This document shows positions 4,223 through 32,661 of a DNA stretch of 48,713 nucleotides, piece after piece (positions within the stretch are counted from its first letter, which is position 1; every line of letters begins with the position of its first letter). A program made the translations under genes and the position numbers. The DNA is taken from contig JBHIFL010000025.1 of the NCBI GenBank assembly GCA_046761065.1, forward strand, positions 1 to 48,713, written 5' to 3'. The notes under the pieces were generated by a model. It was given only the letters and a program-made list of their open reading frames with translations. It was not told the origin of the DNA and searched no databases. The stretch is from Candidatus Heimdallarchaeota archaeon. GTDB lineage: Archaea > Asgardarchaeota > Wukongarchaeia > Wukongarchaeales > JBHIFL01.

Positions 4223-5176
4223 TCACTCTCTCGCCAGCTCCCCCAACTTGGTGTTAAGGAATACCTCATCCGCCTCTGACCGCTCAATATCGGTGCTAGA
4301 AGCGTTAGCGAGAGCATAATTGCCTAGGATGAGGAGATAGGCAACCGCTTTTGGAAGGACTAAGTGTTGCCCTGGACAAAACGCCCCATAGGTCTGCCCG
4401 ACAAAGCAAAATGGAGGGACAAGAGTATTGATCTGAATCGGGACAGGATCATTGGGAAAAACGATCGACCGACAAAGATGAAATCGCAATAACGCCTTCT
4501 CATCAGGAAGTAAGACAGTTTTTAGTCCGGTACGTCCGTGCAAAGAATTCGGGATTCGTATGATCCGGTGAGTGTCGCTGGTAATATTAACATCAATCGA
4601 AAAACCATCCCGGAGAGCGGTATAGGCGATCCGGGTACGTACTCGTTTTTCTTGCGCTTCCCTGTTACGAATATCCACACACTTTACATGATTCACCACA
4701 TCGAAGTCGTTCACATAGAGATGAAAGCCCCGATGCCCACTAAACACAAATGAGAAGTCTCGATAACCATATGTTACATAAAGCCAGTCTTTCAGCAGGA
4801 GAATTTCCCGTTTGGCACGTTCAAGCTCTACTTGAGAAGGTAGAGCATATTTAGAAATTGTGTCAAAATCAAAGACCAGTGGTCCACCAAGACAAGGTAC
4901 TCCATTTGTCAGATGGCGCAGTTCTTTCGGGAAGAGAAATTGCAAAACTGTGGTATACAAATCCCGCGGTGGCTCGTTCCAGTGGACGAGTACTCGATGG
5001 AACGATGCCGCATTCACGATATCACGGCGAATCCCCTTCCAAATTCCTGTCATGGTTCGCAAACGGATGTGCCGAAATTTAAAGCCGCCCACAGGCATTA
5101 GAGTTGCAGAAGCATAGTAAGCTTTGAAATCTGAGAGGATAAACCCGAGACTTTGGTAGGGGGAAATTTTAGCCAA
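4223..5176 (-). CDS. Archaeo-eukaryotic primase small subunit (PriS-like paralog)
   Basis: AEP motifs LVFDFD, FSGHRGFHLYV and D..ITSDTHRIIRIPNSLHGRTG, plus a PriS-type C-terminal extension (TYGAF.PG..LVLP..VA.LLI..NYA). Confidence 0.85.
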   Translation of the reverse strand: MAKISPYQSLGFILSDFKAYYASATLMPVGGFKFRHIRLRTMTGIWKGIRRDIVNAASFHRVLVHWNEPPRDLYTTVLQFLFPKELRHLTNGVPCLGGPLVFDFDTISKYALPSQVELERAKREILLLKDWLYVTYGYRDFSFVFSGHRGFHLYVNDFDVVNHVKCVDIRNREAQEKRVRTRIAYTALRDGFSIDVNITSDTHRIIRIPNSLHGRTGLKTVLLPDEKALLRFHLCRSIVFPNDPVPIQINTLVPPFCFVGQTYGAFCPGQHLVLPKAVAYLLILGNYALANASSTDIERSEADEVFLNTKLGELARE

Positions 5177-5600: not shown

Positions 5601-6785
5601 GTGATAGAACGTTCATTAATAAAAGTCCTTTCCAACACCAAAAGAAATTTACAAGAGACTAGAAAGTTAATGAGACTGTTGTTCGATGTCAGGGAGAATG
5701 GAGGTTCTATATTGAATACAAATCAAATAAATAGAACAGATTCAATTGCAGTTTTTTGGGATGTGGAGAATTGTGCTCCTCCACGAAGAACGAAAGGTCC
5801 GGATATTATAGAGAATATTCGATTAGCGCTTAAAGATTTTGGTGTCATTCGTCAGATTAATGCGTACGCTGAGCTCTGACTCATCCCTAAAAGCCTTCGT
5901 ATAGAGCTTCAACGATCCGGCGTACACCTGATTGATGTACCATTGCAGGAAAAAGATTCAGCAGACAAAATGATCATTTCCGATCTGATCATGTTTGCAG
6001 TTGACAATCCACCCCCCAAAACGTTAGCTTTGATCTCAGGAGACCGGGACTATGCATATTCTCTAGCCAAACTCCGTCAGAGGGGATATGAAGTCATATT
6101 GTTGATCCCACTCGTTGGAGCACACCCGACTCTCCTAGCCCAAGCGGATCGCATCATTGATTGGCATGATCTCGCCAAAGGAGAGCAATTCGAAGATTCT
6201 ACAATTGGAGAACCTTTAACTACAATCCAATTTGAACCCCTTGTAGCCACCTTGCAACATTTAAGAGACTTGGGAAAGACGAAACCCCTTTTTTCGCACG
6301 TTGGAGAATATTTAGCCCGTAAATATCCTGCTCGATGGAAAAAAGTAGGTGTCACCCGTCTGAAGGATTATGTGGAAGAGGCTGCAAAAGCAGGCTTGGT
6401 TTCCTAGGGAGGAGATCACCCAGGTTACTGGGTCACTTTAGTACCTCCTGAAGTAGATGCGAAAAAGCCTCAAGATTTAAGTCTAACTGACGACTCGCGT
6501 TTTGAACCGCTCTTTGAGATCCTTGAGAAAGCACAGAAATTAGGAATTGACGAACCTGAAATGGCCTGGATTGGTTATCAATTACGATCTATGATGCCTG
6601 CATGGCGGGAACAGCTGAGATGCAAACGTTTAATGGACTATATCATAGAGGCGGAAGACGCCAAGTTAATTGGGGTTCGACATGAAGGTCTCCAACATTA
6701 TATCTGGTTGAAGTCACCCAATGCACAAGGAACTAGAATGAGCTTGGAAAAAGATACAAAAATAAATCGAAAGATAAAGGACTGA
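5601..6785 (+). pseudogene. NYN-domain RNase with two C-terminal LOTUS/OST-HTH-like repeats, interrupted by two in-frame stops
   Basis: ORFs 5601..5879, 5943..6407 and 6561..6785 share one frame. NYN motifs VFWDVENC, KDSADK and LISGDRDY are present. Stops are TGA 5877-5879 and TAG 6405-6407. Two repeats begin FEPL and contain RL.DY..EA..A.L. Confidence 0.85.
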
Positions 6786-6830
6786 TTAATACAAAAAAAA
6801 TTGGCCGAAATGGACTCAAGTAAAAAAAAT

Positions 6831-7140
6831 CTAAGGACACCTATCGCGGTAGGTACAATTAGTACATTTCCACAGCTCATCTGTCGTCGCAGGTCTTGAT
6901 TCCTGTTCCCCAAACCAATACGCGGCTGCAATAAGTAAGTCATCTAAGAGTTCTGTTTCATCAAATTTAAACCAATCTTCATTGATGAGTCGTCCATCCG
7001 ATGCGTGAATGTATCTAATGCATAAATGCTTGGAAAGAGGGAACAGTTTTCGAACGCTCACAAAACTGCGGCGACAGAATTCCCCTAATGGTACCTCTTT
7101 TTAGACATAGTATGTTCTTCCACGTGATTCACTGGCAGAT
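6831..7140 (-). pseudogene. C-terminal fragment of an exonuclease V (Exo5)/Cas4-like Fe-S nuclease
   Basis: Ends YWFGEQE...ELWKCTNCTYRDRCP, matching the Exo5-type W.G.R...WKCxxCxxxxxC tail. In-frame TAA at 7101-7103; the N-terminal nuclease core is not visible. Confidence 0.6.
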
Positions 7141-19190: not shown

Positions 19191-20184
19191 ATAAGTTGCT
19201 AGACACCAATTGCCCCGAATCGATATAAGAAAATCTATATGTCTAAAGTTATAACTATTTGAGTAAATTCTGTCGTGAAAAACAAGGCGGTCAATTGGCT
19301 TTATCAGAATGCGATCTTGTTAATTAATGCTTTTTCTTTCAAAATACTGTTTTACACCTCTTTTCACTGCTTTCTTCTTTGTTGAGGCGCCTCAAGCCCC
19401 TCCTGAGTGTATTTGTAAGCCCCTCCCGAACATGATCAATTTTGGCGAAGTAGTTTCATCAGGTAACATCTTCATCTTCCTCTCCAAATTATAACCTTGC
19501 TAATCATGGAGTGGAGCATACGGGATGACATCAAGCCTATTTATTATGGTACATATGACTAAACGTGATTATAACCTTGGATTTGAATGGGTCAGGTTCA
19601 GATAATATTAATTCCCTCTCATTTCATCATTGTGCTTTATACTGTTTGACTACTCCTCATTTCCCTGCAAGAGGATCCAACCCTGTTCCAATTTCAATCT
19701 TATATAATTCTCGAAGGACTTGACGGGTTTTCACATCATCAATATAGTAGGAAAATGTACATCATTAAGGGTTGGTAGCCAGATGACTTCCAATATTTCG
19801 TTTTAGGCATTATTAATATTATCATTAAATACAAGTTGGACTGCTTAATCAAATGCATATACACATGTTAGAAGAAACTGTATGATGATACACGCATTTT
19901 TTTCTCTCCACTCCAATATTAGCATATCAGACACATTGAGATAAAAGTTTGGACTCCTTTCCTTACGATTGTGTACTACAGCGAACGATGCATCAGAAAA
20001 GGTCGCTGGTGTTAAGCTAGGTGGAACATGAAAAGCATTTCTGTGAGCCACTAAACACCGCATCTAGCTCTCAATTGTTTACGTTAACCAGTATACTAGA
20101 TCAGCCTCTTTCCCAAAATATTCCCTTAATTTTTTACTTTGATAATTGGTGGCATTTTATATCCATCTCCCGCCGGATAACGCT

Positions 20185-20640
20185 CTAAATATCCTCTTCT
20201 AATGTGACGGATTCAATAGCTGTCTTTAAAATTTGATTAAACAGTGAATAACTTTTTATTTGCATATTCACCACTTTTTTCAATGTTAGATCGTTATCTA
20301 AGTTGTATCGTTCCTCAAGAAAAGTCAATTCTTTAGTAAACGATTCGTTATTCGAAATCAATTGCTGTAATATATTTACTATCATGTTTGTATTAGGGGC
20401 AAGCCGATATCTATAACCAAGCCTTCTAGGGCTCGATTTTACAATAACACCATAATTTTCAAGAAGCTTAAGTACCCTATTGACAGATGCTCGTGAAGTA
20501 GGGTAATCCGCTTCGGGTAATAGCTCAGAAAGTCGTTTTGAAATGTTCTCTTGAGTCCAAAACCCGAGTTCTAACATTAATAATGCTTCAATCCACCCAC
20601 CAAGACTGGGATACCCAAATCCCTCGTATTTTTTACCCAT
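20185..20640 (-). CDS. GbsR/MarR-type winged-helix regulator
   Basis: WTQENIS..L...SRASVNRVLKLLENYGVI wHTH pattern. Confidence 0.7.
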   Translation of the reverse strand: MGKKYEGFGYPSLGGWIEALLMLELGFWTQENISKRLSELLPEADYPTSRASVNRVLKLLENYGVIVKSSPRRLGYRYRLAPNTNMIVNILQQLISNNESFTKELTFLEERYNLDNDLTLKKVVNMQIKSYSLFNQILKTAIESVTLEEDI

Positions 20641-20817
20641 TATTTCAAAAAATTGTTTCGTGCTTCTGGAATCATGATCTTGTCTCCAATTTCGCCTAGG
20701 ATTCGAACTTTATTTCAATTTTCCGAAATTCTGAATTTCAATAAAATGAAAAACCTACGATTGGAGAAAAGAACAAAAAGAAATTTTTATTTTGCCCAAG
20801 TTTTAGAAAATAGGCAT

Positions 20818-21711
20818 CTATCTGTGAGAAATATTCCTAAGACGATTATTAATCCAATGAACTTCCTTTTCGAAATCTGCCACTTGATAAAACTCAAGAA
20901 GTTGGCGATATCGATCCAAAACATCAAATTGGATGCTGGAATGGAGCTTACGTAGGCACACTGGGCAAAGATGCATCGGTCGTGCATCACTCTCCTCTAG
21001 ATGGTTGGATCCGTTTATTACGCACTTAAAGAATATACAATGGCTTAAACCAAACATATGAGCGGTTTCATGAGTCAAAACTTTACAGCTACGCCATAAT
21101 AAGATTCTTTGATAATTTAATTCCCGTTCTCCCCCAAAAAAAGCGGGATCATATCGAGCAAAACTGAAAACTCCAACACGATGCACCAGAGAAGCTTGAC
21201 CAAAACAAAAGTTCCAGGAGGGTTGGGGGTAGAGATCCTCCATGGTAAGTGCCAGAATACAGAATCCATCACCAGGCAGCCTTTTTCGGAGGAGATCTAA
21301 TACGTCCGTGGTTAGAATTTGCCGTTTTCTAGTGAAAGGATTAATCCGAGTTGTAACACGATAATCATCAGGTGTTAGAGGAGAAAGGACTTTCACGTCC
21401 ATCTGGAAGAAAACAGTGGTGTAGTTCCTTAATCTTTCCATCGATGGGCTTCGGTCTTTTAGAAACTCCCCGAATGGCTGCAAGTAAATCCTCCACTGAT
21501 GGGAATTCGGCCGCTTCGGCTTTGACTTGATAAATTCGTTAAATGTTTGCCCGGTTTCCAAATGTACGGCTAACCAGTCGTTCGGGTTTGGAGTTGGGAT
21601 GGGTTCGAAGTCTGTATTAGGATCGAAGGCCAGTCGAAGCGGCTCCGACAACTCTTTAACAGATCCAATCGCCTGAAGCCTTCTAGCAGCATTTGGCGGT
21701 TTGAACGCCAT
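20818..21711 (-). CDS. Archaemetzincin (peptidase M54), long form
   Basis: HETAHMFGLSHC...C.INGSN..EE.D......CPVC.RKL and DLYP...WNFCFGQAS motifs. Confidence 0.9.
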   Translation of the reverse strand: MAFKPPNAARRLQAIGSVKELSEPLRLAFDPNTDFEPIPTPNPNDWLAVHLETGQTFNEFIKSKPKRPNSHQWRIYLQPFGEFLKDRSPSMERLRNYTTVFFQMDVKVLSPLTPDDYRVTTRINPFTRKRQILTTDVLDLLRKRLPGDGFCILALTMEDLYPQPSWNFCFGQASLVHRVGVFSFARYDPAFFGGERELNYQRILLWRSCKVLTHETAHMFGLSHCIFFKCVINGSNHLEESDARPMHLCPVCLRKLHSSIQFDVLDRYRQLLEFYQVADFEKEVHWINNRLRNISHR

Positions 21712-23568: not shown

Positions 23569-23895
23569 ATGTTGAATACAGAAACATTTCAAGTTGAGTC
23601 TATGTTAGGAAAAGGAGGCGTCCGATGCTGGCGATGCGGCCGCTCATTAACCAACCCTGAGAGCATTGAACGTGAGTACGGTCTAGTGTGCTGGGAGAAG
23701 GTTGAAATCGAGCTATGGTTAGGCGATGTGGCAGTCTCAGAGCCAACCATCCCGACCCAACGACGGTATTGGAACCCCAAGCTGGCTGAAAAACTCGTAA
23801 CCGTCCACCACACCTTAGATACCTTCTGCTTTGTGGAGGTGGAGCCACACCAAGCAGAAGCTCCGAGTAAGAAGGCGGTCCTGGTGGAGGGGTGA
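23569..23895 (+). CDS. DUF6011-like zinc-finger protein
   Basis: RCWRCGRSLTNPESIEREYGLVCWEK fits the C..CGR.LT...S...G.GP.C pattern. Confidence 0.75.
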   Translation: MLNTETFQVESMLGKGGVRCWRCGRSLTNPESIEREYGLVCWEKVEIELWLGDVAVSEPTIPTQRRYWNPKLAEKLVTVHHTLDTFCFVEVEPHQAEAPSKKAVLVEG

Positions 23896-23899
23896 GGTG

Positions 23900-24148
23900 A
23901 TGTCCCATTCCCAGTACCTCTAAGTGGAGGCGGCTCGGCTGGTAGTGGAGGGACGCGTTTCCATCCTCTATAAAGGCGGGGGAACCGCGATCTTTTTGGT
24001 AGAGAGCAAGACGAAGGCCTATCGAGTGCACCTGAATCCTGATGGGACGGTGTCATGTACAAGCACCCACTGGACATACTGGGGGGAAGTGTGTCAGCAT
24101 ATTCTCGCGAGTCAGTTTTGCCACCATGCCCACGAGGTGGTTCGGTGA
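23900..24148 (+). pseudogene. SWIM zinc-finger protein with an early in-frame TAA
   Basis: RBS gaggtg and ATG 23900; TAA at 23921-23923; F.VES....Y.V......SCTS.......CQHILA (second SWIM Cys replaced by Ser). Confidence 0.7.
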
Positions 24149-25221
24149 TCCTCATGGTACCGCAGACGCAGTTCCGCTTGCGAGCAGTCTTCTATACGCC
24201 CATGGCTAAACCATTAGGGGTCAATGTACCGGGGAGTTCCACCAGTACAATCCCGGGGACAGCGCCCTTAGTCGTCGAGACCACCGCAGAGAATCCGCTG
24301 GTTTCCATTGCCCACAAAATTACTGAAGGGACTTTAGGGCAACTCCCAGTCAAGGCTCTTCGGGAAATTATCGATGAGCTGCAGACCGTTAGTGGAGAAG
24401 GGGTGTCCAAATCAGGTACGAAAACGGAGATGATCCAACGCATTCTCGCTTCCCAACACAAAGATGCCGCGATCCAGCGGTTCCTCATTGATAAAGATGT
24501 CCGGGAACAACAGAAACAGGAACGACTCATCTTGAAGCTCTTTACCAGTCTTCGGGGTGCCTTACGCCAAGCGGGGAAGGAAATCCTGGAGGAACTCCAC
24601 CTCCCCTACAGTATGCCAGGATTACCAGAGGATTCGTTACCCAAAGGTGCCCATCGACCAGGCGAATGTCCTGACCCCGAGGAAGAATGCCTGTTATGCC
24701 GCGTCTTTGGCTCGCTGAACCACGCCTCTCTTTTCCGGAATTATACCCCACCGTTAGTGGACGACCCTGAGACCAAGTTGGGCATCCACCAGGAAGTGAA
24801 TCACGTCTTAATCCGCACTCATGCCCGCAACGTCCACCGTCCAGATGGGAACACCCTCAACTTCAACCAACAATATTTTGCGGGCGAATTCATTACGTAC
24901 CTCCAGTTTCCCAACGGCCGCCCGAAGCCCATAACCTTGGGATTTCTGCTCAATTGCCTGGAACGCTGTACCGATGTGGGGGCCGCGAAGGCGTGGGGCG
25001 CCGGGAAACTGTTCCTCCGGGCCTACACGTTGGAAAAGGTCGAATTCACCTATGCGCGGGAATGGGACGGGGGAGCTTTTCAGTTAGTTCGCAAAGAGAC
25101 GGTCATACCCCTCAAAGCTGAACTGGAACACGCCTTCGAAGCCTATGAGCAGTGGCTAGCCCAAATTGTAACAAAACCTAGCGAATCGAGTGAGACCCAT
25201 GAAGGGGAGGTGACTGCATGA
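24145..25221 (+). CDS. Cas7-like RAMP protein with a SAP/HEH-like insertion
   Basis: N-terminal beta strand; TSLRGALR (the RAMP SLKG.LR helix); H...EC......CLLCRVFGS; C-terminal Gly loop VGAAKAWGAGK. The start is likely GTG 24145 after gaggtg, overlapping the upstream TGA. Confidence 0.82.
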   Translation: MILMVPQTQFRLRAVFYTPMAKPLGVNVPGSSTSTIPGTAPLVVETTAENPLVSIAHKITEGTLGQLPVKALREIIDELQTVSGEGVSKSGTKTEMIQRILASQHKDAAIQRFLIDKDVREQQKQERLILKLFTSLRGALRQAGKEILEELHLPYSMPGLPEDSLPKGAHRPGECPDPEEECLLCRVFGSLNHASLFRNYTPPLVDDPETKLGIHQEVNHVLIRTHARNVHRPDGNTLNFNQQYFAGEFITYLQFPNGRPKPITLGFLLNCLERCTDVGAAKAWGAGKLFLRAYTLEKVEFTYAREWDGGAFQLVRKETVIPLKAELEHAFEAYEQWLAQIVTKPSESSETHEGEVTA

Positions 25222-26108
25222 TTGCGCGCCTCATCGCGGAAACCCTGACCCCGATTGTGACGAAGTCCCGATTCCTACGGGTACGTGGCAGCCGCGGGGT
25301 GGTGTCCAATCGGCCTTATCTGGAACTGGAGGCGCCGGCTCGCCATCAATGCCGCACGACCCTGATCGTGAAGCAAGGCGCGCATGGGTTGCCAGTCTAC
25401 CGGCGCGCGTATATGGGGTACTTGCACCTCGATTTCAAAGCCCGAACGCAGAAGCAGACCAATCGGAAAATTCACGCATTACTCCAACTCCAATGTGTCG
25501 GAAAGCTCACCGCATGGGGTTACGGGGCCATTCGCTGGGTTTTACACAAGGTGTATCATCGACAAGCATCGGGTCACACGTTTCGCCCACGGTTCCGGAT
25601 TCTCAAGGGCTTACTCTCGGATCTGACCTTCCATGAGCGCCAGCTGGCTATGGCTGCGCTCCTGCACGATTTGGTGGACACCGATATGCACCCCTCCAAG
25701 TTGGGGCGGGCCGTCACGATCCCCGATCCCTATGTGCGGTGGTTGTGTACACAGCATCACGCCGCAAAGGCGCACTCCGATAATCCCGATTTGCAGTTCT
25801 TGCAAGAAGCGGATGTTCGGACGTCACGCTATGCCCGCCTCCTCTCTGTATCCACACGGCGCCGCAAGCTGGCTCCGGTCAATACGCAACAGCTCGCCCA
25901 ACAACTCGAAGAGGCCGCCCACCACTCGGTTTATAAACTCTACACAGTTATCTACCATTCACAAGAACTAACGCAGTTCACCGCATCCAAAACCCATCCT
26001 ACCGAGACGCTCCGGAATCACCTCATTGGGGTGGTGAATTGGGTGTTGTTCCTGGTGCGAACACGCGTTTCTACCTCTTTACATGCTTCGGCAGCCCTCG
26101 TGGGATAG
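25218..26108 (+). CDS. Cas5-like RAMP fused to an HD nuclease domain
   Basis: N-terminal LIAETLTPIV strand and Gly loop VGKLTAWGYGAI, then AALLHDL, HH, ADVRTS and C-terminal ETLRNHL. ATGA overlap with the upstream gene. Confidence 0.78.
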   Translation: MIARLIAETLTPIVTKSRFLRVRGSRGVVSNRPYLELEAPARHQCRTTLIVKQGAHGLPVYRRAYMGYLHLDFKARTQKQTNRKIHALLQLQCVGKLTAWGYGAIRWVLHKVYHRQASGHTFRPRFRILKGLLSDLTFHERQLAMAALLHDLVDTDMHPSKLGRAVTIPDPYVRWLCTQHHAAKAHSDNPDLQFLQEADVRTSRYARLLSVSTRRRKLAPVNTQQLAQQLEEAAHHSVYKLYTVIYHSQELTQFTASKTHPTETLRNHLIGVVNWVLFLVRTRVSTSLHASAALVG

Positions 26109-26260
26109 CTGGGTGGAACTCCCGGCCTTGTCGAGGTGGAAGATCCTCGGGTCGCAGATGAGCCATCACTCCGTGGTGAAACCCGAGCGAGAGGACCCAC
26201 ACTCGGCGGTGTGGCCACGACCTCCTCGTTGAGGGGCTTTCATGCAACAAGGAGCGAAAA
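25915..26260 (+). repeat. 346 bp direct repeat, copy 1 (3' end of cas5-HD plus RNA)
   Basis: Colinear without indels with 30781..31126 (offset 4866). Confidence 0.95.
26079..26260 (+). ncRNA. Putative structured RAMP-associated RNA, copy 1
   Basis: cUUCGg hairpin (tgc-ttcg-gca); stems gctggg/cccggc, ctcgggt/acccgag, tcact/ggtga and ccacac/gtgtgg; closing pairs gccctcg/tgaggggc and ttacatg/catgcaa; near-identical second copy. Confidence 0.7.
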
Positions 26261-26261
26261 G

Positions 26262-27944
26262 CTAGTATCCAATCGCTTCAGATTCAAAGCTAAGGAAGTG
26301 CCACTCCACGCCACCATAAAGGAGATTCTGCTTGGAGTCAACGACAATACCGACGGGTCTGGCCCAGTTGCCGATCTCTTTGTCAATGTAAGCAATTTGA
26401 TGTCCCATCTCTATGAGCTTAGTAGAGGTTTCCTTGGGGAATCTACTGTCAATTTGTACCTCACTCGTTTCCCGCGTGATCCTTGGGGCCTCGATTGCCG
26501 ACTGGATGTCCATCCCGAAGTCAATAACGTGAACGATGGTCTGAACGATAGATGTCTGAATAGCTCTCCCACCAGGGGCTCCAATAGCCATGAAGGGTTC
26601 TCCATCTTTCAGGAGGATGGTTGGACAGACGTTCTGGATTCGACGCTTTCTTCCCGAGATTGAATTTGCATGCCCTGGTTCTGGATTAAGCCCGTACATT
26701 GCATTATTCATAACAATTCCTGTTTCAGGGATGACTACTCCACTACCAAAGGTATCAACAAGGGTTTGGTTTATTGCCACCAAGTTTCTATCTTTGTCAG
26801 CCACTGTAAGGGCAGTTGTACATTCTTCATATGGCCATGGGTTACCCGGGGTTATTTCAAGGGCTTTCTGAAAGTTGATCCGTTGTTTCTGAAGCATCTT
26901 GGCATATTCCTTGGAAACAAGCCCTCGTTGAGGGACATTGATAAACTCAGGATCCCCCATATACTCGAATCTGTCGGCATAAGCGAGGCCGATAGCCTCA
27001 GCCATGATGTGGAGATGTTCCAGGGATCCGAACCCATATCCGGCGAGATCGAACCCTTCAAGAATATTTAAAATCTCCATGAGGGTCGTCCCGGCGTGAC
27101 TCGGATCGTAAATTACTTCAAAGCCTCGGTATGATCCAGGAAGGGGGGTGATGACAAGGGGCTCGTACATGGCGAGGTCTTCTGCGGTGATCAGCCCATT
27201 ATTTTTTGCCATGTCTTTAATAATAGCCTTGGCGATCTCTCCCTTGTAGAAAGCGTCGGGCCCCTCCTCTGCGATGAGGCGGAGGGACTTTGCCAGATCT
27301 TTATTGGCGAGTATATCCGGAGTTGCTTTGATGGAGTGGGTGTAGGGTGTTGGAGGATACTTCCCCTCCTTAAGGAATATCCTCTGCCACTCTGGAAAAT
27401 TCGAGAATCGGTGCATAGTCTTCACGATATGGGATGTGGTCCACCAGCCCACCACGAACCCCTCTTCTGCTATCTTAATGGCTGGTTCTAGAACCTCTTT
27501 AAGCTCCATCGTCCCATAGAGCTCTAGGGCTTTCGCTAGGCCCGCGACCGTACCTGGGACGGTTGAAGCCTTATAGCCTACTATATTGGCGTCATCCTTG
27601 ACTCGTCTCCATCCCATCCACCCAGGCTCTATTTCATCAAGAAGTTCATACATTTCAGGAGTGCAATTCTTTGATGGGCGACCCACATAGTCGATGATGA
27701 TGTTCTTCCCACTGATATGAATCGCCATGACCCCCTCCCCACCAATGCCATTCATGGCCGGCTCGACAACGCAGTCCACAAATGCAGCTGCCACAGCGGC
27801 GTCGATAGCGTTTCCTCCCTTTCGCATGGCTTCAATTCCTGTCTTGCTTATGAGGGGGTGTTTCGCTGCAACCATTCCATGCTTTGCCACACAGCAGTCC
27901 CTAATTGCCTTCTCCCACTTATGCTGTTGATAAATGTACGCCAA
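26262..27944 (-). CDS. ggt: Gamma-glutamyltransferase
   Basis: GGNAIDAAVA, GIGGEG and VPGTV motifs, autocleavage Thr (CTTALTVAD), FGSG and GAPGG. Confidence 0.95.
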   Translation of the reverse strand: MAYIYQQHKWEKAIRDCCVAKHGMVAAKHPLISKTGIEAMRKGGNAIDAAVAAAFVDCVVEPAMNGIGGEGVMAIHISGKNIIIDYVGRPSKNCTPEMYELLDEIEPGWMGWRRVKDDANIVGYKASTVPGTVAGLAKALELYGTMELKEVLEPAIKIAEEGFVVGWWTTSHIVKTMHRFSNFPEWQRIFLKEGKYPPTPYTHSIKATPDILANKDLAKSLRLIAEEGPDAFYKGEIAKAIIKDMAKNNGLITAEDLAMYEPLVITPLPGSYRGFEVIYDPSHAGTTLMEILNILEGFDLAGYGFGSLEHLHIMAEAIGLAYADRFEYMGDPEFINVPQRGLVSKEYAKMLQKQRINFQKALEITPGNPWPYEECTTALTVADKDRNLVAINQTLVDTFGSGVVIPETGIVMNNAMYGLNPEPGHANSISGRKRRIQNVCPTILLKDGEPFMAIGAPGGRAIQTSIVQTIVHVIDFGMDIQSAIEAPRITRETSEVQIDSRFPKETSTKLIEMGHQIAYIDKEIGNWARPVGIVVDSKQNLLYGGVEWHFLSFESEAIGY

Positions 27945-28114
27945 CTTGGGGCACCGATTAAAGTCGTTGAAATGTGTTATATAAACTTAACTAGGACGTA
28001 TGAACATTCAGTAGGAGAGCTTTTCATGGGTACGTAACTGGTCAGTTGATTATCTTGAGGGTCGTATGTGGAAAAAGTAGTTAAGCCTTGTGAAAATGCT
28101 CAACTATTTACGCT

Positions 28115-28840
28115 CTACGAATTGGTGAGCGATGCTAATTTTCTTTTCCAATCACGAACAATATTTCGTTCTCTGTAGAAATGTCCCATCTCTCCTCTCC
28201 ACCTTCCCACTTGCTTCGGGAAGGCAATTACTAAGATATATGAGACGACAAGGAAGGCACAAAGGAGTAAACCCGTCGCATCGCGTGCCATGACGAACCC
28301 AAGGGTCCCAGCGACGCCGGAGGTGAACACGGTGGACATGCCCGCCAGCAAGAACATCCATTGTCTCTTTGGCGGCGAGGCCATTAAATAGCTGTAGTAG
28401 TTGATCTTCAGCGTCGGGAGATAGTAAATATCTCGGGACATCCCGTCAAATCGAATTCCCATTAAGGTACCTGCGACGAAGCGTCCCAGAGGATAGCCGA
28501 AGACGACAAACCCCCCCAGTAAATGACTATTCCATTTGAAGCAGATGAGATCGTTCCCTGCTATCTTTTCCAGAGACCAAATGTATCCAATAAAGCAACC
28601 AATTGCCAAAACACCCCAAATGGGAAGCATTACTTTCAGTGAAAAGGTTCTGCCGAGTCTTTGTTCATACAACAGATCTCGAATCTCCGAAGCTTTAGCA
28701 ACTATTTCTTGATCAGGGTGCGGGGTTCTTTTTATCTGGCCAACAAGTTTCCAAAAATGTGTTCTTATCTCCGGGGTGACATTTTTTGGATCCCTGATGA
28801 CCAGATCATGGATCTCCTTCAACTTCTCAAACAAGAGCAC
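28115..28840 (-). CDS. Hypothetical membrane protein
   Basis: Soluble N-terminus plus about four TM helices; PTLKINYYSYL. Confidence 0.7.
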   Translation of the reverse strand: MLLFEKLKEIHDLVIRDPKNVTPEIRTHFWKLVGQIKRTPHPDQEIVAKASEIRDLLYEQRLGRTFSLKVMLPIWGVLAIGCFIGYIWSLEKIAGNDLICFKWNSHLLGGFVVFGYPLGRFVAGTLMGIRFDGMSRDIYYLPTLKINYYSYLMASPPKRQWMFLLAGMSTVFTSGVAGTLGFVMARDATGLLLCAFLVVSYILVIAFPKQVGRWRGEMGHFYRERNIVRDWKRKLASLTNS

Positions 28841-29107
28841 TGCCCCCTAAATTTGATGGAAAGTATAACCTCTTTTGTTTTCCGTTTCTTGGTGGGCTTT
28901 CCCTATTTGTTGAATGAGCTATTTTCGCATAATCAAGTTTCTTTTTGGGAGCGTTATCTCCCTCTTATAATCCTACAGGTATAAAATACTAACTAAAATC
29001 ATTAGGATTCATTAAGGGCCAATTTCACGGATTAAAAACCTGACCGGTTGCATCGCAAAGTATTTCTTCCTTTATGAAGAAATTAATTTCGTTAGAGTGA
29101 GATAACG

Positions 29108-29635
29108 ATGAGAATCGCTGTAGGATCGACCAATCCGGTCAAATTCCAAGCCGTGGAGAATGCATTTTCCCATTATTTTTCAGCAATTGAAGTCATCAGC
29201 GTCGAGGTCGATTCTGATGTCGCTTCCCAGCCTTTTAATGAAGAAATTAAAATAGGAGCTGAAAACAGAGCAAGAAAGGTTCTAAAGACAACGAATGCCG
29301 AATATGGCGTTGGATTGGAAGGAGGGATTGTAGAACTCTATGAGGCGACATATATTGCGGGATACTGCGCAATTATGAACCAAAACTTGGAGTGTCATGG
29401 GAGTTGGGGCTCCTTTTGGGAGTGCCCACCTCGGGTTCTAACAGAACTTAAAGCGAAAAAAAAGGAACTTGGCGCTGTGATCGATGAGTTGAGCAAGCGA
29501 ACGAATACCAAACAAGCCGAAGGTGCCATTGGGATTTTCTCCAAGGGCGTCATTCTTCGGGAATTGGTTACTCGACACACAGTAATCTATGCCCTAATTC
29601 CTTTCCTAAATGAGACATTCTACCGGATGTCTTAG
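29108..29635 (+). CDS. yjjX: Inosine/xanthosine triphosphatase
   Basis: VGSTNPVK, SDV..QP, GAENRA, VGLEGG and GAIG motifs. Confidence 0.93.
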   Translation: MRIAVGSTNPVKFQAVENAFSHYFSAIEVISVEVDSDVASQPFNEEIKIGAENRARKVLKTTNAEYGVGLEGGIVELYEATYIAGYCAIMNQNLECHGSWGSFWECPPRVLTELKAKKKELGAVIDELSKRTNTKQAEGAIGIFSKGVILRELVTRHTVIYALIPFLNETFYRMS

Positions 29636-29677
29636 TTTGCGATGTTCTGTGTCCAAGGCTTAGGGATTGTGCGTAAA

Positions 29678-30667
29678 ATGAGAATTTTAATCACCGGGGC
29701 GTTTGGAAATGTCGGGAAGGCTGTACTCCATGAGGCACAGAAAAAAAATCACGAAATCGTAGTATTTGAGTTGGATAATAAGAGAAATCGAAAGCTTGCG
29801 AAAAAATACCGAAACATGGTAGATACAGTTATTTTTGGGGATATCCGCGATTATATTTCAGTTCTTTCAGCAGTTGAAGGGTGCGATGGCGTCATTCATA
29901 TGACCGCGCTCATTCCTCCGGTCACCAAGAGGAATCGGGAACTTTGCATGGCTGTAAATTATGGGGGGACGGTAAATGTGGTCAATGCCCTTAATCAAGT
30001 CGCTAGCAATATTCCCCTCATTTTTTGTTCTTCCGCGAGTGTCATGGGGGCCACCCAACATTTAAACCGATTAATCCGACCCGATGATCCCCTGAAGATA
30101 ACAGGTAACTACGAAGAGTCAAAAATTAAAGCAGAGAACATGATTCGAGAAAAATATCGCAATTTCTTAATTTTTCGTCTCGCTGGAGTGTTACCCCTCC
30201 ATTCAGATTTTTCCTTTCAGCAGCTTGAAGAACTCTTTAGCATCCATTCAGACGCACGGGTTGAGATGATTCTGGATTTGGATGTGGCCTTTGCCCTCAT
30301 AACAGCAGTCGAAAAACTCACGACCCAAGACACCCCGAATAATCGGGCCTATATTCTAGGGGGTGGGAAAAAAAATGGATTCCAGATTACTGGCGAGATC
30401 TTAATTTCCCGTTCCTTGGGTTGTCTTTCGCTTCCAAAACCTGATCTAAAATATTTTACACAAGATTTAAACTCATACCATTTAGATTGGTACGATACTG
30501 AAGCGGTCCAACAGGAATTTGCCTACCAAAACCACAAACTGGACGATTATTACGATTTCATTCAGAAACGTTATGGACGTTACCGTATTTTTATCCGCTT
30601 GTTTCGGCCCCTTATCTTGAGAAAATTTATCTCGATGTCGCCATACTATAAAACTCCAGAAGCCTGA
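29678..30667 (+). CDS. NAD-dependent epimerase/dehydratase
   Basis: MRILITGAFGNVG and YEESK catalytic motif; start taken at MRIL. Confidence 0.9.
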   Translation: MRILITGAFGNVGKAVLHEAQKKNHEIVVFELDNKRNRKLAKKYRNMVDTVIFGDIRDYISVLSAVEGCDGVIHMTALIPPVTKRNRELCMAVNYGGTVNVVNALNQVASNIPLIFCSSASVMGATQHLNRLIRPDDPLKITGNYEESKIKAENMIREKYRNFLIFRLAGVLPLHSDFSFQQLEELFSIHSDARVEMILDLDVAFALITAVEKLTTQDTPNNRAYILGGGKKNGFQITGEILISRSLGCLSLPKPDLKYFTQDLNSYHLDWYDTEAVQQEFAYQNHKLDDYYDFIQKRYGRYRIFIRLFRPLILRKFISMSPYYKTPEA

Positions 30668-30780
30668 GAACAAGGTGAAATCTTTCCGTCGACCTCAAGA
30701 GGAACGATCCGTTGCTAAGGAATCTCATACTAATTTGGACACATTAATCCCGGAATCGACAGCTTGATGTGTCCCTAATC

Positions 30781-30974
30781 CCGCCCACTGTTCGATCTTC
30801 CGCTTGTATTCGATGATTTACCACTCGGAGGAATGGCACCAAATTATCGCGGCCAAAGCCCATCCTACCGAGACTCTCCGGAATCACCTCATTGGGGTGG
30901 CGAACTGGGTGTTGTTCCTGGTGCGAATGCGCGCCTTTCCTCCCTTACATGCTTCGGCAGCCCTCGTAGGACAG
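30781..30974 (+). pseudogene. Orphan 3' fragment of a diverged cas5-HD paralog
   Basis: Encodes AHCSIFRLYSMIYHSEEWHQIIAAKAHPTETLRNHLIGVANWVLFLV, versus AHHSVYKLYTVIYHSQELTQFTASKTHPTETLRNHLIGVVNWVLFLV in the full gene. Confidence 0.88.
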
Positions 30975-31126
30975 CCGGGTGGAACTCCCGGCCCTGTCGA
31001 GGTGGAAGATCCTCGGGTCGCAGATGAGCCATCACTCCGTGGTGAAACCCGAGCGAGAGGACCCACACTCGGCGGTGTGGCCACGACCTCCTCGTTGAGG
31101 GGCTTTCATGCAACAAGGAGCGAAAA
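30945..31126 (+). ncRNA. Putative structured RAMP-associated RNA, copy 2
   Basis: Four substitutions in 182 nt relative to 26079..26260; the last 132 nt are identical. Confidence 0.7.
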
Positions 31127-31128
31127 AC

Positions 31129-32661
31129 ATGATCTTGGTGCTCGACTTCGGCGGGCAGTATTGCCACCTCATAGGACGACGAATCAGGGAGCATGGGGTG
31201 TATTCCGAAATTGCTCCCTACGATATAACCCTCAAAGACCTCCAGCGGCTACATAAACAATTCAACGTGAGAGGCTTAGTGTTTTCAGGAGGCCCCGCCA
31301 GCGTGTATGAGCCCAGGGCGCCGCGACCAGATCCGAGCTTTTTGGGATTAGATATCCCGATTTTGGGGCTCTGTTATGGCCATCAACTGATCGCCCACAT
31401 GGCTGGAGGACAGGTTGAGCCAGCGAAACAGCGGGAGTACGGGATCGCGTATGTCACCATCGACCGACCGGTGGGCGTCTTGCGGGGAGTCGGGGAGACA
31501 GAGAAGGTGTGGATGAGTCACGGGGACACGGTGTTCGGGCTCCCCGCCGACTATGAGGTCTTAGCGCATACCGAAAATTGTCCGGTGGCCGCGTTTCGGC
31601 ACCAGCAAAAGCCGATCTATGGGTTGCAGTGGCACCCGGAGGTGGTGCATACCGAAAAGGGCATGCAGATGCTCCATAACTTCATTTTTGAAGTTTGTAA
31701 ATGTGACGCGAACTGGAAAATGGAAGATGTTGTGGAAAAAGCGAAAAATGAAATCCGAACGACGGTGGGGGAGGGGAAAGCGATTATCGCCCTAAGTGGG
31801 GGGATTGACTCCAGTGTGGCAACAGTTCTTGCAGCTAAGGCCCTTGGTAACAGACTGACAGCCGTGTTCGTGGACCACGGCTTTATGCGCGAGAACGAAC
31901 CGGCTTTTGTAAAGAGGGTATTTCAGAAGTTCAAAATAAACCTCGAAATGGTCAATGCCCGCGAGCGATTCCTAGCTAAACTTGCGGGAATCGTTGATCC
32001 TGAAGCAAAACGAAAAATTATCGGCGAGGAATTCATCCGGGTGTTCGAAGAAATCGCCGAGAGATCCGGGGCCGAATACCTCATTCAAGGGACTATTTAT
32101 CCAGACCGAATCGAGTCTGGCGTTAGGAAACTGTCGGATAAAATCAAAACCCATCACAACGTGGCGGGGTTGCCTACTCGAATTCGGTTCAAGGCAATTG
32201 AGGAACCCCTTTGTGACCTGTATAAAGATGAGGTGAGAAAAGTTGCCCAACTGCTGGGCCTACCAAAGGAACTCGTTGGGAGACAACCCTTCCCCGGCCC
32301 CGGTCTAGCCGTCCGGATTATCGGGGAATTAACCCCCGAGAAAATTAATATCGCAAAGAAAGCGGATCAAATTGTGCGGGAAGAAATCGAAGCCGGCGGA
32401 TTGCAAGAGCAGTTGTGGCAGTATTTCGCAGTAGTAACCGACACAAACGCCACAGGCGTCAAAGGCGATGCCCGGGCGTATGGGACTGTTATTGCGGTCC
32501 GAGTGGTGGAAAGTCGTGAAGCAATGACCGCGAGCTTTGCGAAACTCCCCTATGCCGTATTGGAACGCATCTCGACGCGAATCACCAATGAAGTGCCTCA
32601 AGTTACTCACGTGGTCTATGATATAACCCATAAGCCTCCTGCCACAATCGAATGGGAGTAA
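31129..32661 (+). CDS. guaA: GMP synthase (glutamine-hydrolysing), fused form
   Basis: ILVLDFGGQY, GLCYGHQ, HPEV, SGGIDS, QGTIYPD and KPPATIEWE motifs. The start is ATG 31129 or 31108. Confidence 0.97.
   Translation: MILVLDFGGQYCHLIGRRIREHGVYSEIAPYDITLKDLQRLHKQFNVRGLVFSGGPASVYEPRAPRPDPSFLGLDIPILGLCYGHQLIAHMAGGQVEPAKQREYGIAYVTIDRPVGVLRGVGETEKVWMSHGDTVFGLPADYEVLAHTENCPVAAFRHQQKPIYGLQWHPEVVHTEKGMQMLHNFIFEVCKCDANWKMEDVVEKAKNEIRTTVGEGKAIIALSGGIDSSVATVLAAKALGNRLTAVFVDHGFMRENEPAFVKRVFQKFKINLEMVNARERFLAKLAGIVDPEAKRKIIGEEFIRVFEEIAERSGAEYLIQGTIYPDRIESGVRKLSDKIKTHHNVAGLPTRIRFKAIEEPLCDLYKDEVRKVAQLLGLPKELVGRQPFPGPGLAVRIIGELTPEKINIAKKADQIVREEIEAGGLQEQLWQYFAVVTDTNATGVKGDARAYGTVIAVRVVESREAMTASFAKLPYAVLERISTRITNEVPQVTHVVYDITHKPPATIEWE

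Follow-up and report, generated by a model that had tools for sequence, protein, structure and literature searches.

What is a stretch of 346 bp doing in front of an essential gene when the part of it that looks like the tail of a protein-coding gene has diverged, and the part behind it has hardly changed? The question is raised by positions 30781-31126 (copy B) of an archaeal window (the whole stretch of DNA that was analysed, 48,713 nt), which run colinear with 25915-26260 (copy A), and it unfolds into several others: where did the two parts of copy B come from; is the RNA that the conserved part would encode a mobile unit, a guide or a leader; and to which kind of system does the intact copy belong? 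The best-supported reading of these sequences is that copy B represents a domesticated, or “hostage-holding”, module heading the guaA message, which is maintained by purifying selection and has probably been homogenised with its intact neighbour.

When the two stretches are aligned without gaps, 51 of the 346 bp differ, and the counts made previously, in what will be called here the sequence-only reading (35 mismatches over the first 80 bp, four over the final 182 and zero over the final 132), were reproduced exactly, with 12 further mismatches in the middle 84 bp; the TAG stop codon of copy A (26106-26108) does correspond to CAG in copy B. The similarity is far beyond chance (blastn E 2e-117), the copies lie in direct orientation 4.9 kb apart, and the sharp conserved 3′ boundary on which that reading had staked its case is there, as the homology stops just past GCGAAAA(A/G), at 26261 in copy A and at 31127 in copy B. 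The segments into which the alignment falls are listed in Table 1 together with the other features.

Table 1. Features of copies A and B and of the gene behind copy B, with positions in the window.
Feature	Position	Strand	A vs B identity	Basis or remark
Cas7-like RAMP gene, copy A	24154..25221	+		fold; ORF open from ATG 24055
Cas5-like RAMP fused to Cas10-type HD nuclease domain (Cas5-HD), copy A	25218..26108	+		VIA-align
Module, copy A	25987..26261	+		last 26 Cas5-HD codons, variable CU-rich linker and ~180-nt structured core
Segment 5′ of the aligned stretch	30708-30780		33%	unrelated
Diverged part, copy B	30771..30852	+		C-terminal remnant (~codons 230-257) of a different Cas5-HD paralog
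Aligned segment of the diverged part	30781-30852		53%	
Left part of homogenised tract, copy B	30853..30930	+	92%	formerly last ~26 Cas5-HD residues
Hypervariable pyrimidine-rich linker, copy B	30931..30948	+	61%	anti-Shine-Dalgarno-like composition
Structured RNA core, copy B	30949..31127	+	97%	covariation, 36 sequences
Helix closing the fold and covering the Shine-Dalgarno sequence, copy B	30950-30955/31117-31122	+		
Helices, copy B	30963-30970/30993-31001; 30974-30981/30985-30992	+		
Helices, copy B	31014-31019/31046-31051; 31028-31032/31039-31043	+		
Helices, copy B	31064-31069/31074-31079; 31080-31086/31106-31111; 31088-31091/31099-31102	+		
Ribosome site and start of guaA	31115..31131	+		AAGGAG 31115-31120, 8-nt spacer, guaA ATG 31129-31131
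guaA, glutamine-hydrolysing GMP synthase, host gene	31129..32661	+		Pfam GATase and GMP_synt_C

The diverged 5′ part of copy B is truncated 5′, closely preceded by a stop codon, and matches aa 230-296 in tblastn at 66%; its frame stays open for 67 codons (30771-30971) and carries many conservative replacements (SIFRLYSMIYHSEEW against SVYKLYTVIYHSQEL). At the nucleotide level, 30781-30852 is 46-62% identical to all paralogs, and the combination of this range with the open frame and the conservative changes indicates that the tail stems from a diverged, long-functional Cas5-HD paralog; copy A and the copy labelled C15, for comparison, are uniformly about 85% alike across all segments. A tail diverged from every paralog, yet open, bears out the earlier suggestion that copy B is not a simple recent duplication and derives from another family member.

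Behind this tail, copy B belongs to the lineage of copy A over a homogenised tract of 275 nt, within which the two have the derived CCGAGAC in common, the other copies having CGGAATC. The linker inside the tract differs at seven of 18 positions (linkers are 44-67% identical among all copies), so that conversion needs either two tracts or a later fast change in copy A. Orthologs of both copies occur in a related MAG (GCA_046758425.1), that of B in front of guaA (L048; its contig ends inside the module, leaving the left part of the B ortholog unassembled) and that of A as L050. Over 149 nt, B and A agree at 148 positions, B and L048 at 146, A and L050 at 143, and L048 and L050 at 141, and there are three sites at which B shares derived states with A and L050, L048 keeping the family-majority state. 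The simplest reading of these patterns is that copy B was converted by copy A; the relative’s copy could instead have been converted by another paralog, and, whichever the direction, the A and B modules are, by this comparison, under concerted evolution.

How much of the likeness is due to constraint can be gauged against the gene behind. Of 218 four-fold sites in guaA, 55 (25%) are changed in L048 relative to the window, whereas the module differs at four of 150 nt, which at the neutral rate has P ~3e-14; the module is thus about ten times better conserved than the guaA four-fold sites, and copy B must be under strong constraint, which means that this orphan has been kept since before the two genomes split. 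Selection and gene conversion, which had been offered as alternatives, therefore both act on the RNA part, as evidenced by the four differences in 150 nt and by the three polarised sites, respectively.

The identity of the system rests on the two genes of copy A, neither of which has a Pfam or NCBIfam family. Homologs of the Cas7-like protein align from its Met34, at 24154, and the Cas5-HD start overlaps the Cas7-like stop (ATGA), making the gene pair translationally coupled. An AlphaFold model of the Cas7-like protein (pLDDT 86) gave 99 Foldseek matches in the PDB at E<=1e-3, and the best 50 of the 99 are all CRISPR effector chains (types VII, IV-A, III-A Csm, III-E Cas7-11 and I Cascade), which we take to be Cas7 subunits; Csm3 and RAMP HMMs match it weakly. 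Residues 137-287 of the second protein align with residues 2-220 of a type III-A large subunit chain (6ifk_A, Z 10.0, VIA-align), a part that we read as the HD domain of Csm1/Cas10, and H150, H180, H181, D199 and H268 are invariant, and D151 nearly so, among 16 homologs. Its residues 1-120 match, at middling Z, small RAMP chains from effector complexes of types III-A, IV-A and I-A (9g9a_G, 7.4; 7xfz_B, 6.9; 9crp_G, 6.9; VIA-align), presumably Cas5-type subunits. The two proteins are predicted to bind each other (ipSAE 0.69 against 0.00 for the best of three controls, with a mark reached by 58 of 80 solved complexes and two of 110 mismatched pairs), with at least 63% of contacts agreeing between runs and a partner pLDDT of at least 74, although passing this mark may reflect likeness to solved Cas5-Cas7 complexes.

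Both a Cas7-like and a Cas5-like RAMP protein are thus present by fold. No tandem repeat that would make a CRISPR array was found in the whole 48.7-kb window, the module copies being repeated kilobases apart, and the host is an Asgard archaeon, as the Cas5-HD and GuaA homologs are named Candidatus Heimdallarchaeota in NCBI records. Related islands carry a neighbour protein of 1300-1460 aa, a 1404-aa representative of which had no Cas1 or integrase match in Pfam, PADLOC or PDB sequences. ARAMP systems (Makarova et al. 2020, CRISPR J 3:156, as summarised in PMC8730458 and PMC12669027) are array-less Asgard derivatives of CRISPR, which these two reviews call enigmatic and for which they name no RNA partner. 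Going by the predicted folds, the unit that copy A ends is of the ARAMP type, lacks an array and comes from a Heimdall-group archaeon. TnpB and IscB were considered as candidates and rejected, since they have no Pfam, NCBIfam or PADLOC support and the folds are those of Cas7 and Cas5-HD. The resemblance to omegaRNA noted in the sequence-only reading consequently holds only as an analogy, because the proteins are Cas7-like and Cas5-HD; as a TnpB/IscB RNA it has to be given up. No Rfam family, omegaRNA and HEARO types included, matched in the window at the gathering score, and lowering the bar to E<=10 within 30700-31200 gave two chance-level matches only.

Two small GC-rich ORFs (23569-24148), a DUF6011 zinc-ribbon protein (108 aa) and a SWIM-like ORF of 74 aa, both unique in the genome, lie directly 5′ of the Cas7-like gene, and GC content rises sharply at ~23560. 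Farther upstream, a 147-aa accessory gene that in related islands stands 5′ of the Cas7-like gene survives at 19281-19658 as a broken remnant made up of several short ORFs. The remnant is ~75% identical in nucleotides to L043:1900-2279 and points to copy A being part of an older or larger island.

The module proper, the last ~180 nt of copies A and B, is a multi-helix structure supported by covariation. An HMM built from ten long copies found 46 nhmmer matches in the 4.4-Mb genome, upholding the previous proposal that the module is multi-copy, and further copies occur in contigs of related MAGs and in JGI metagenome contigs; among 40 other genomes of GTDB relatives, one gave a DNA match. The copies are 70-97% identical in sequence. 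In an alignment of 36 sequences, a nine-helix structure pairs 88.2% of cells, as opposed to 37-46% when the partners are slid by 1-3 columns, with 25 pairs changed on both sides against 13-19 in the slid controls; none of 500 shuffles reached any of the observed pairing measures, the structure itself coming from this very alignment. There are 308 G-U pairs against 103 A-C mismatches, so that an RNA of the sense strand is favoured. Single-sequence fold energy is no better than that of shuffles on either strand (z -0.6), and RNAalifold on 19 copies from the genome itself yields a weak consensus only. The helix that closes the fold pairs UGCUUC (30950-30955) with GGAGCG (31117-31122), inside the Shine-Dalgarno sequence. 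Past the position of the TAG codon, 13 of 16 Cas5-HD homologs read on for 20-29 codons into the RNA region (GQPGGTPGPVEVEDP...) and three, copy A included, stop there; as the stop position varies, the read-through stretch is constrained as nucleic acid rather than as protein. Transcription of the module, the ends of its RNA and its binding by a protein are inferred.

On a larger island of another MAG (L041), copies are found at 4476-4642, 5810-5998 and 6772-7039, one directly 5′ of the Cas7-like gene, one directly 5′ of the Cas5-HD gene and running up to its ATG, and one at the 3′ end of Cas5-HD, and the same layout recurs in the source genome (C36, with a module at 20637-20842 before a Cas7-like ORF of 555 aa), so the module also heads the system’s own genes. 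There is also a short subfamily, which starts at the GGACAGCC helix and has an AT-rich 5′ part of its own (C115 1559-9037 and C131 1239-2856 of the source genome; loci L011, L012, L014, L016 and L020); six of these short modules share one strand of a 9-kb stretch, and PIN/AbrB-like and DUF433-like toxin-antitoxin cassettes come between them in a layout that resembles a cassette array.

What, then, does the module do where no protein-coding part is left? Copy B ends (31127) 1 nt before the guaA ATG, and the module itself contains, at 31108, another ATG in the same frame. GuaA homologs (~80% identity) begin MKYDTILVLDFGG and the one here begins M-ILVLDFGG, from which it follows that the first ~5 native codons of guaA have been replaced. 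The related MAG has the same junction, except that the downstream ATG reads ACG and guaA is annotated from the module’s ATG (MQQGAKST..., 517 aa). As read from these junctions, what copy B can be shown to do is to serve guaA in cis, by providing its leader, ribosome site and start. An empty guaA site was not found in a junction pattern scan of metagenome contigs, and the closest relative shares the insertion.

The junction is not peculiar to guaA. An ORF of at least 60 aa begins within 8 nt behind 13 of the 38 modules with a complete 3′ end, compared to 11.8% of random positions (P 2.5e-4), and about two thirds of the complete modules have no ORF behind. Start codons mostly lie 8-9 nt past AAGGAG, and gene starts follow modules in other MAGs and in metagenome contigs as well. 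The genes headed in this way include guaA, an Obg-like GTPase, ribosomal protein LX, fumarase beta, a cyclophilin-like gene, kinase-like genes and others, and the junctions at the GTPase and at LX are seen again in metagenome contigs. The intact units of the source genome (A and C36) have no gene start behind their module, copy A’s ending 1 nt from the stop codon of ggt on the opposite strand. As a separate observation, the copy A lineage module of the related MAG (L050:3189-3990) abuts the ATG of a DUF84 NTPase gene. The window has this gene at 29095-29634, 2.85 kb 3′ of copy A, from which it is separated by ggt and a 241-aa gene of the opposite strand, and the region upstream of it is AT-rich and looks native; judging by the two arrangements, the sites form a filled-versus-unfilled pair, or the module end has undergone a rearrangement.

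The origin of the orphans becomes apparent where orthologous sites can be compared. The Obg-like GTPase has a remnant in front of it in the source genome (C32) and a complete element in a relative (L046); the cyclophilin-like gene, a frameshifted copy (C15) and, in a relative, an intact Cas5-HD (L040); and fumarase beta, a 350-nt remnant (C9) and, in a relative, a full element (L051) located 380 nt 5′ of the native promoter. Relatives thus keep fuller elements in front of the very genes that have orphans here; orphans arise by decay in place, and the idea that they are independently mobile RNA units does not stand at these sites, where they are remnants of full elements instead. The Cas5-HD remnants of orphans begin at codons 63, 88, 140, 143, 184, 221, 230 and 233. 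A discrete non-autonomous unit of ~350 nt was considered and rejected, as the other orphans are truncated at many different points. Three orphans (B at 30771-30790, C9 at ~11196 and C20 at ~23760) do begin within ~5 nt of each other, at Cas5-HD codon ~230, just 5′ of the conserved TTTATAAA in the coding sequence, a shared left edge that could be due to chance or to a preferred limit of deletion. This TATA-like TTTATAAA had also been considered as an internal promoter in the Cas5-HD tail, a candidate dropped because the motif is destroyed in copy B.

We would put at about 70% the probability that copy B is the right-end RNA module of an ARAMP element once inserted at the 5′ end of guaA, with a leader role and conversion by copy A. 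The element would have inserted into the 5′ end of guaA, B being its surviving right end, and the module would now be transcribed as the leader of the guaA mRNA; since guaA would depend on it for translation initiation, it could not be lost, and it would be kept as the protein-coding part decays, leaving orphans. The intact copy A, 4.9 kb away in direct orientation, would then have overwritten B by gene conversion. As the module ends every Cas5-HD gene and precedes the Cas7-like and Cas5-HD genes in some islands, it is most likely the RNA bound by the Cas7/Cas5-HD complex, and the proteins of copy A would recognise B because the last 132 nt are identical. They may act on the initiation region of guaA, where the closing helix would already pair with the Shine-Dalgarno sequence, or, alternatively, may use the sequence after B as a guide.

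This last thought leads to the supply of guides in trans that the sequence-only reading had entertained. In the form considered here, B would be a stand-alone trans guide or scaffold RNA gene loaded on the Cas7/Cas5-HD complex of copy A, and the sequence 3′ of GCGAAAAA (the start of guaA) would be a spacer for homing, targeting or regulation; we regard this as doubtful. Identity to A over the last 132 nt and strong constraint are what a trans-acting RNA might show, but the cis role for guaA explains the constraint equally. A GAAA-containing octamer at the module end, followed by variable sequence, is by analogy the handle-spacer layout of a class 1 crRNA, and a piece of ~22 nt past the module at a related locus matches fumarase codons 10-17, 440 nt downstream. 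Flanks differ between module copies, as would be expected of guides; against this, searches with k-mers of the A and B flanks, genome-wide 14-mers, blastn-short of flanks and linker, and module tails against 6 kb found no guide target or target-site duplication: the A and B flanks and the variable linker have no second match anywhere in the genome, and no flank duplicate lies within 6 kb of any module with a complete 3′ end. No processing enzyme accompanies the module either. The fumarase piece (L052:2431-2455, right past the module) encodes EDVRKLRA, which are codons 10-17 of the fumarase-beta gene ~440 nt downstream (~L052:2840-2870), with synonymous sites differing; it could be a guide-like tail or a flank carried along from a previous host. 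An even bolder version, a speculation to which we give the same low weight, is an ARAMP with a dispersed “array”, the module being the repeat, the 5′ end of a housekeeping gene the spacer, and the orphans acting in trans. If this were true, orphans would lead the element to insert at the same gene start of naive genomes or, alternatively, dozens of essential genes would be under CRISPR-derived translational control.

Could the structure act as DNA instead, as an end recognised by an integrase or as a recombination site, with A and B bracketing a four-gene cassette (ggt to epimerase)? The two copies are indeed direct repeats around 26262-30780, modules flank each gene in one island, short modules alternate with toxin-antitoxin cassettes on C115, and the NTPase gene that a copy A lineage module abuts in the relative lies inside the bracketed segment here. 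The three-to-one excess of G-U over A-C, however, fits a sense-strand RNA and not duplex or antisense DNA, no target-site duplication was found, the window has no integrase and the giant neighbour protein, as stated above, resembles none in the collections searched, all of which makes such a role very unlikely. Just as little credence is due to the module being an ordinary cis-regulatory leader (a riboswitch-like or protein-binding 5′ UTR) with an incidental RAMP neighbourhood and no link to mobility. It does precede many housekeeping genes with a correctly placed Shine-Dalgarno sequence, which the closing helix can sequester, but copies carry upstream Cas5-HD coding remnants of varying length, their 70-97% identity is repeat-like and extends beyond any ligand-binding core, about two thirds of the complete modules have no ORF to regulate, full elements occupy the same sites in relatives and no Rfam family matches. 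That a collapsed or chimeric join at the repeat created an apparent orphan can practically be set aside, because, despite an estimated contamination of 8% for the MAG, the 132 identical bases and the breaks of the relative’s contigs within the module, the diverged tail and linker are unique to B, the module-guaA junction recurs in the independent assembly of the related MAG and in a Logan assembly, and both flanks are syntenic with the relative downstream.

What is new here is the quantification of the constraint against the silent sites of guaA, the polarised conversion sites and the paralog origin of the tail, along with the orthologous full-versus-remnant pairs and the module-internal ATG used by guaA in the relative. 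A folded RNA fused to the Cas5-HD gene is a concrete RNA to test for ARAMP, its copies are under strong constraint even as orphans, and copy B makes a clean test case: an essential gene, a junction conserved in two genomes and an intact protein-coding copy nearby.

Among known systems, ARAMP is closest, sharing the Asgard host, highly diverged Cas7 and Cas5 homologs that are nearest to type III, an attached nuclease and the lack of a CRISPR array, as far as the published summaries describe it, and related islands add further nucleases (HNH), a helicase and the giant protein. It differs, within the same summaries, in that here a structured RNA module of ~180 nt ends the Cas5-HD gene and is present in ~46 copies, at host start codons, and in that Cas1, of which most ARAMP loci have a distinct homolog, is absent from the unit in the window.

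OMEGA systems (TnpB/IscB) likewise have a structured RNA that overlaps the 3′ end of the effector ORF and reaches a sharp element boundary, as well as numerous degenerate and orphan copies, but the proteins here are RAMPs plus HD, not RuvC nucleases, and neither IS200/605 ends nor TnpA were seen. A class 1 crRNA consists of an 8-nt 5′ handle, bound by Cas5, and a spacer coated by Cas7. The module, too, ends in GCGAAAA(A) directly followed by copy-specific sequence, and the adjoining genes encode Cas5-like and Cas7-like partners predicted to bind each other; the “repeat” here, however, is ~180 nt long, multi-helical and single rather than arrayed, the “spacer” is the start of a host gene, and the window has neither Cas6 nor an adaptation module. 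Finally, there are mobile elements whose outward expression signals serve the adjacent gene (IS-borne promoters; gene-start capture). The case here is like these in that the element end gives a ribosome site and a start codon to an essential host gene, so that the remnant is locked in place; the difference is that the capture is systematic here, with a third of the complete modules taking part, keeps to a fixed distance and involves a folded RNA that is conserved.
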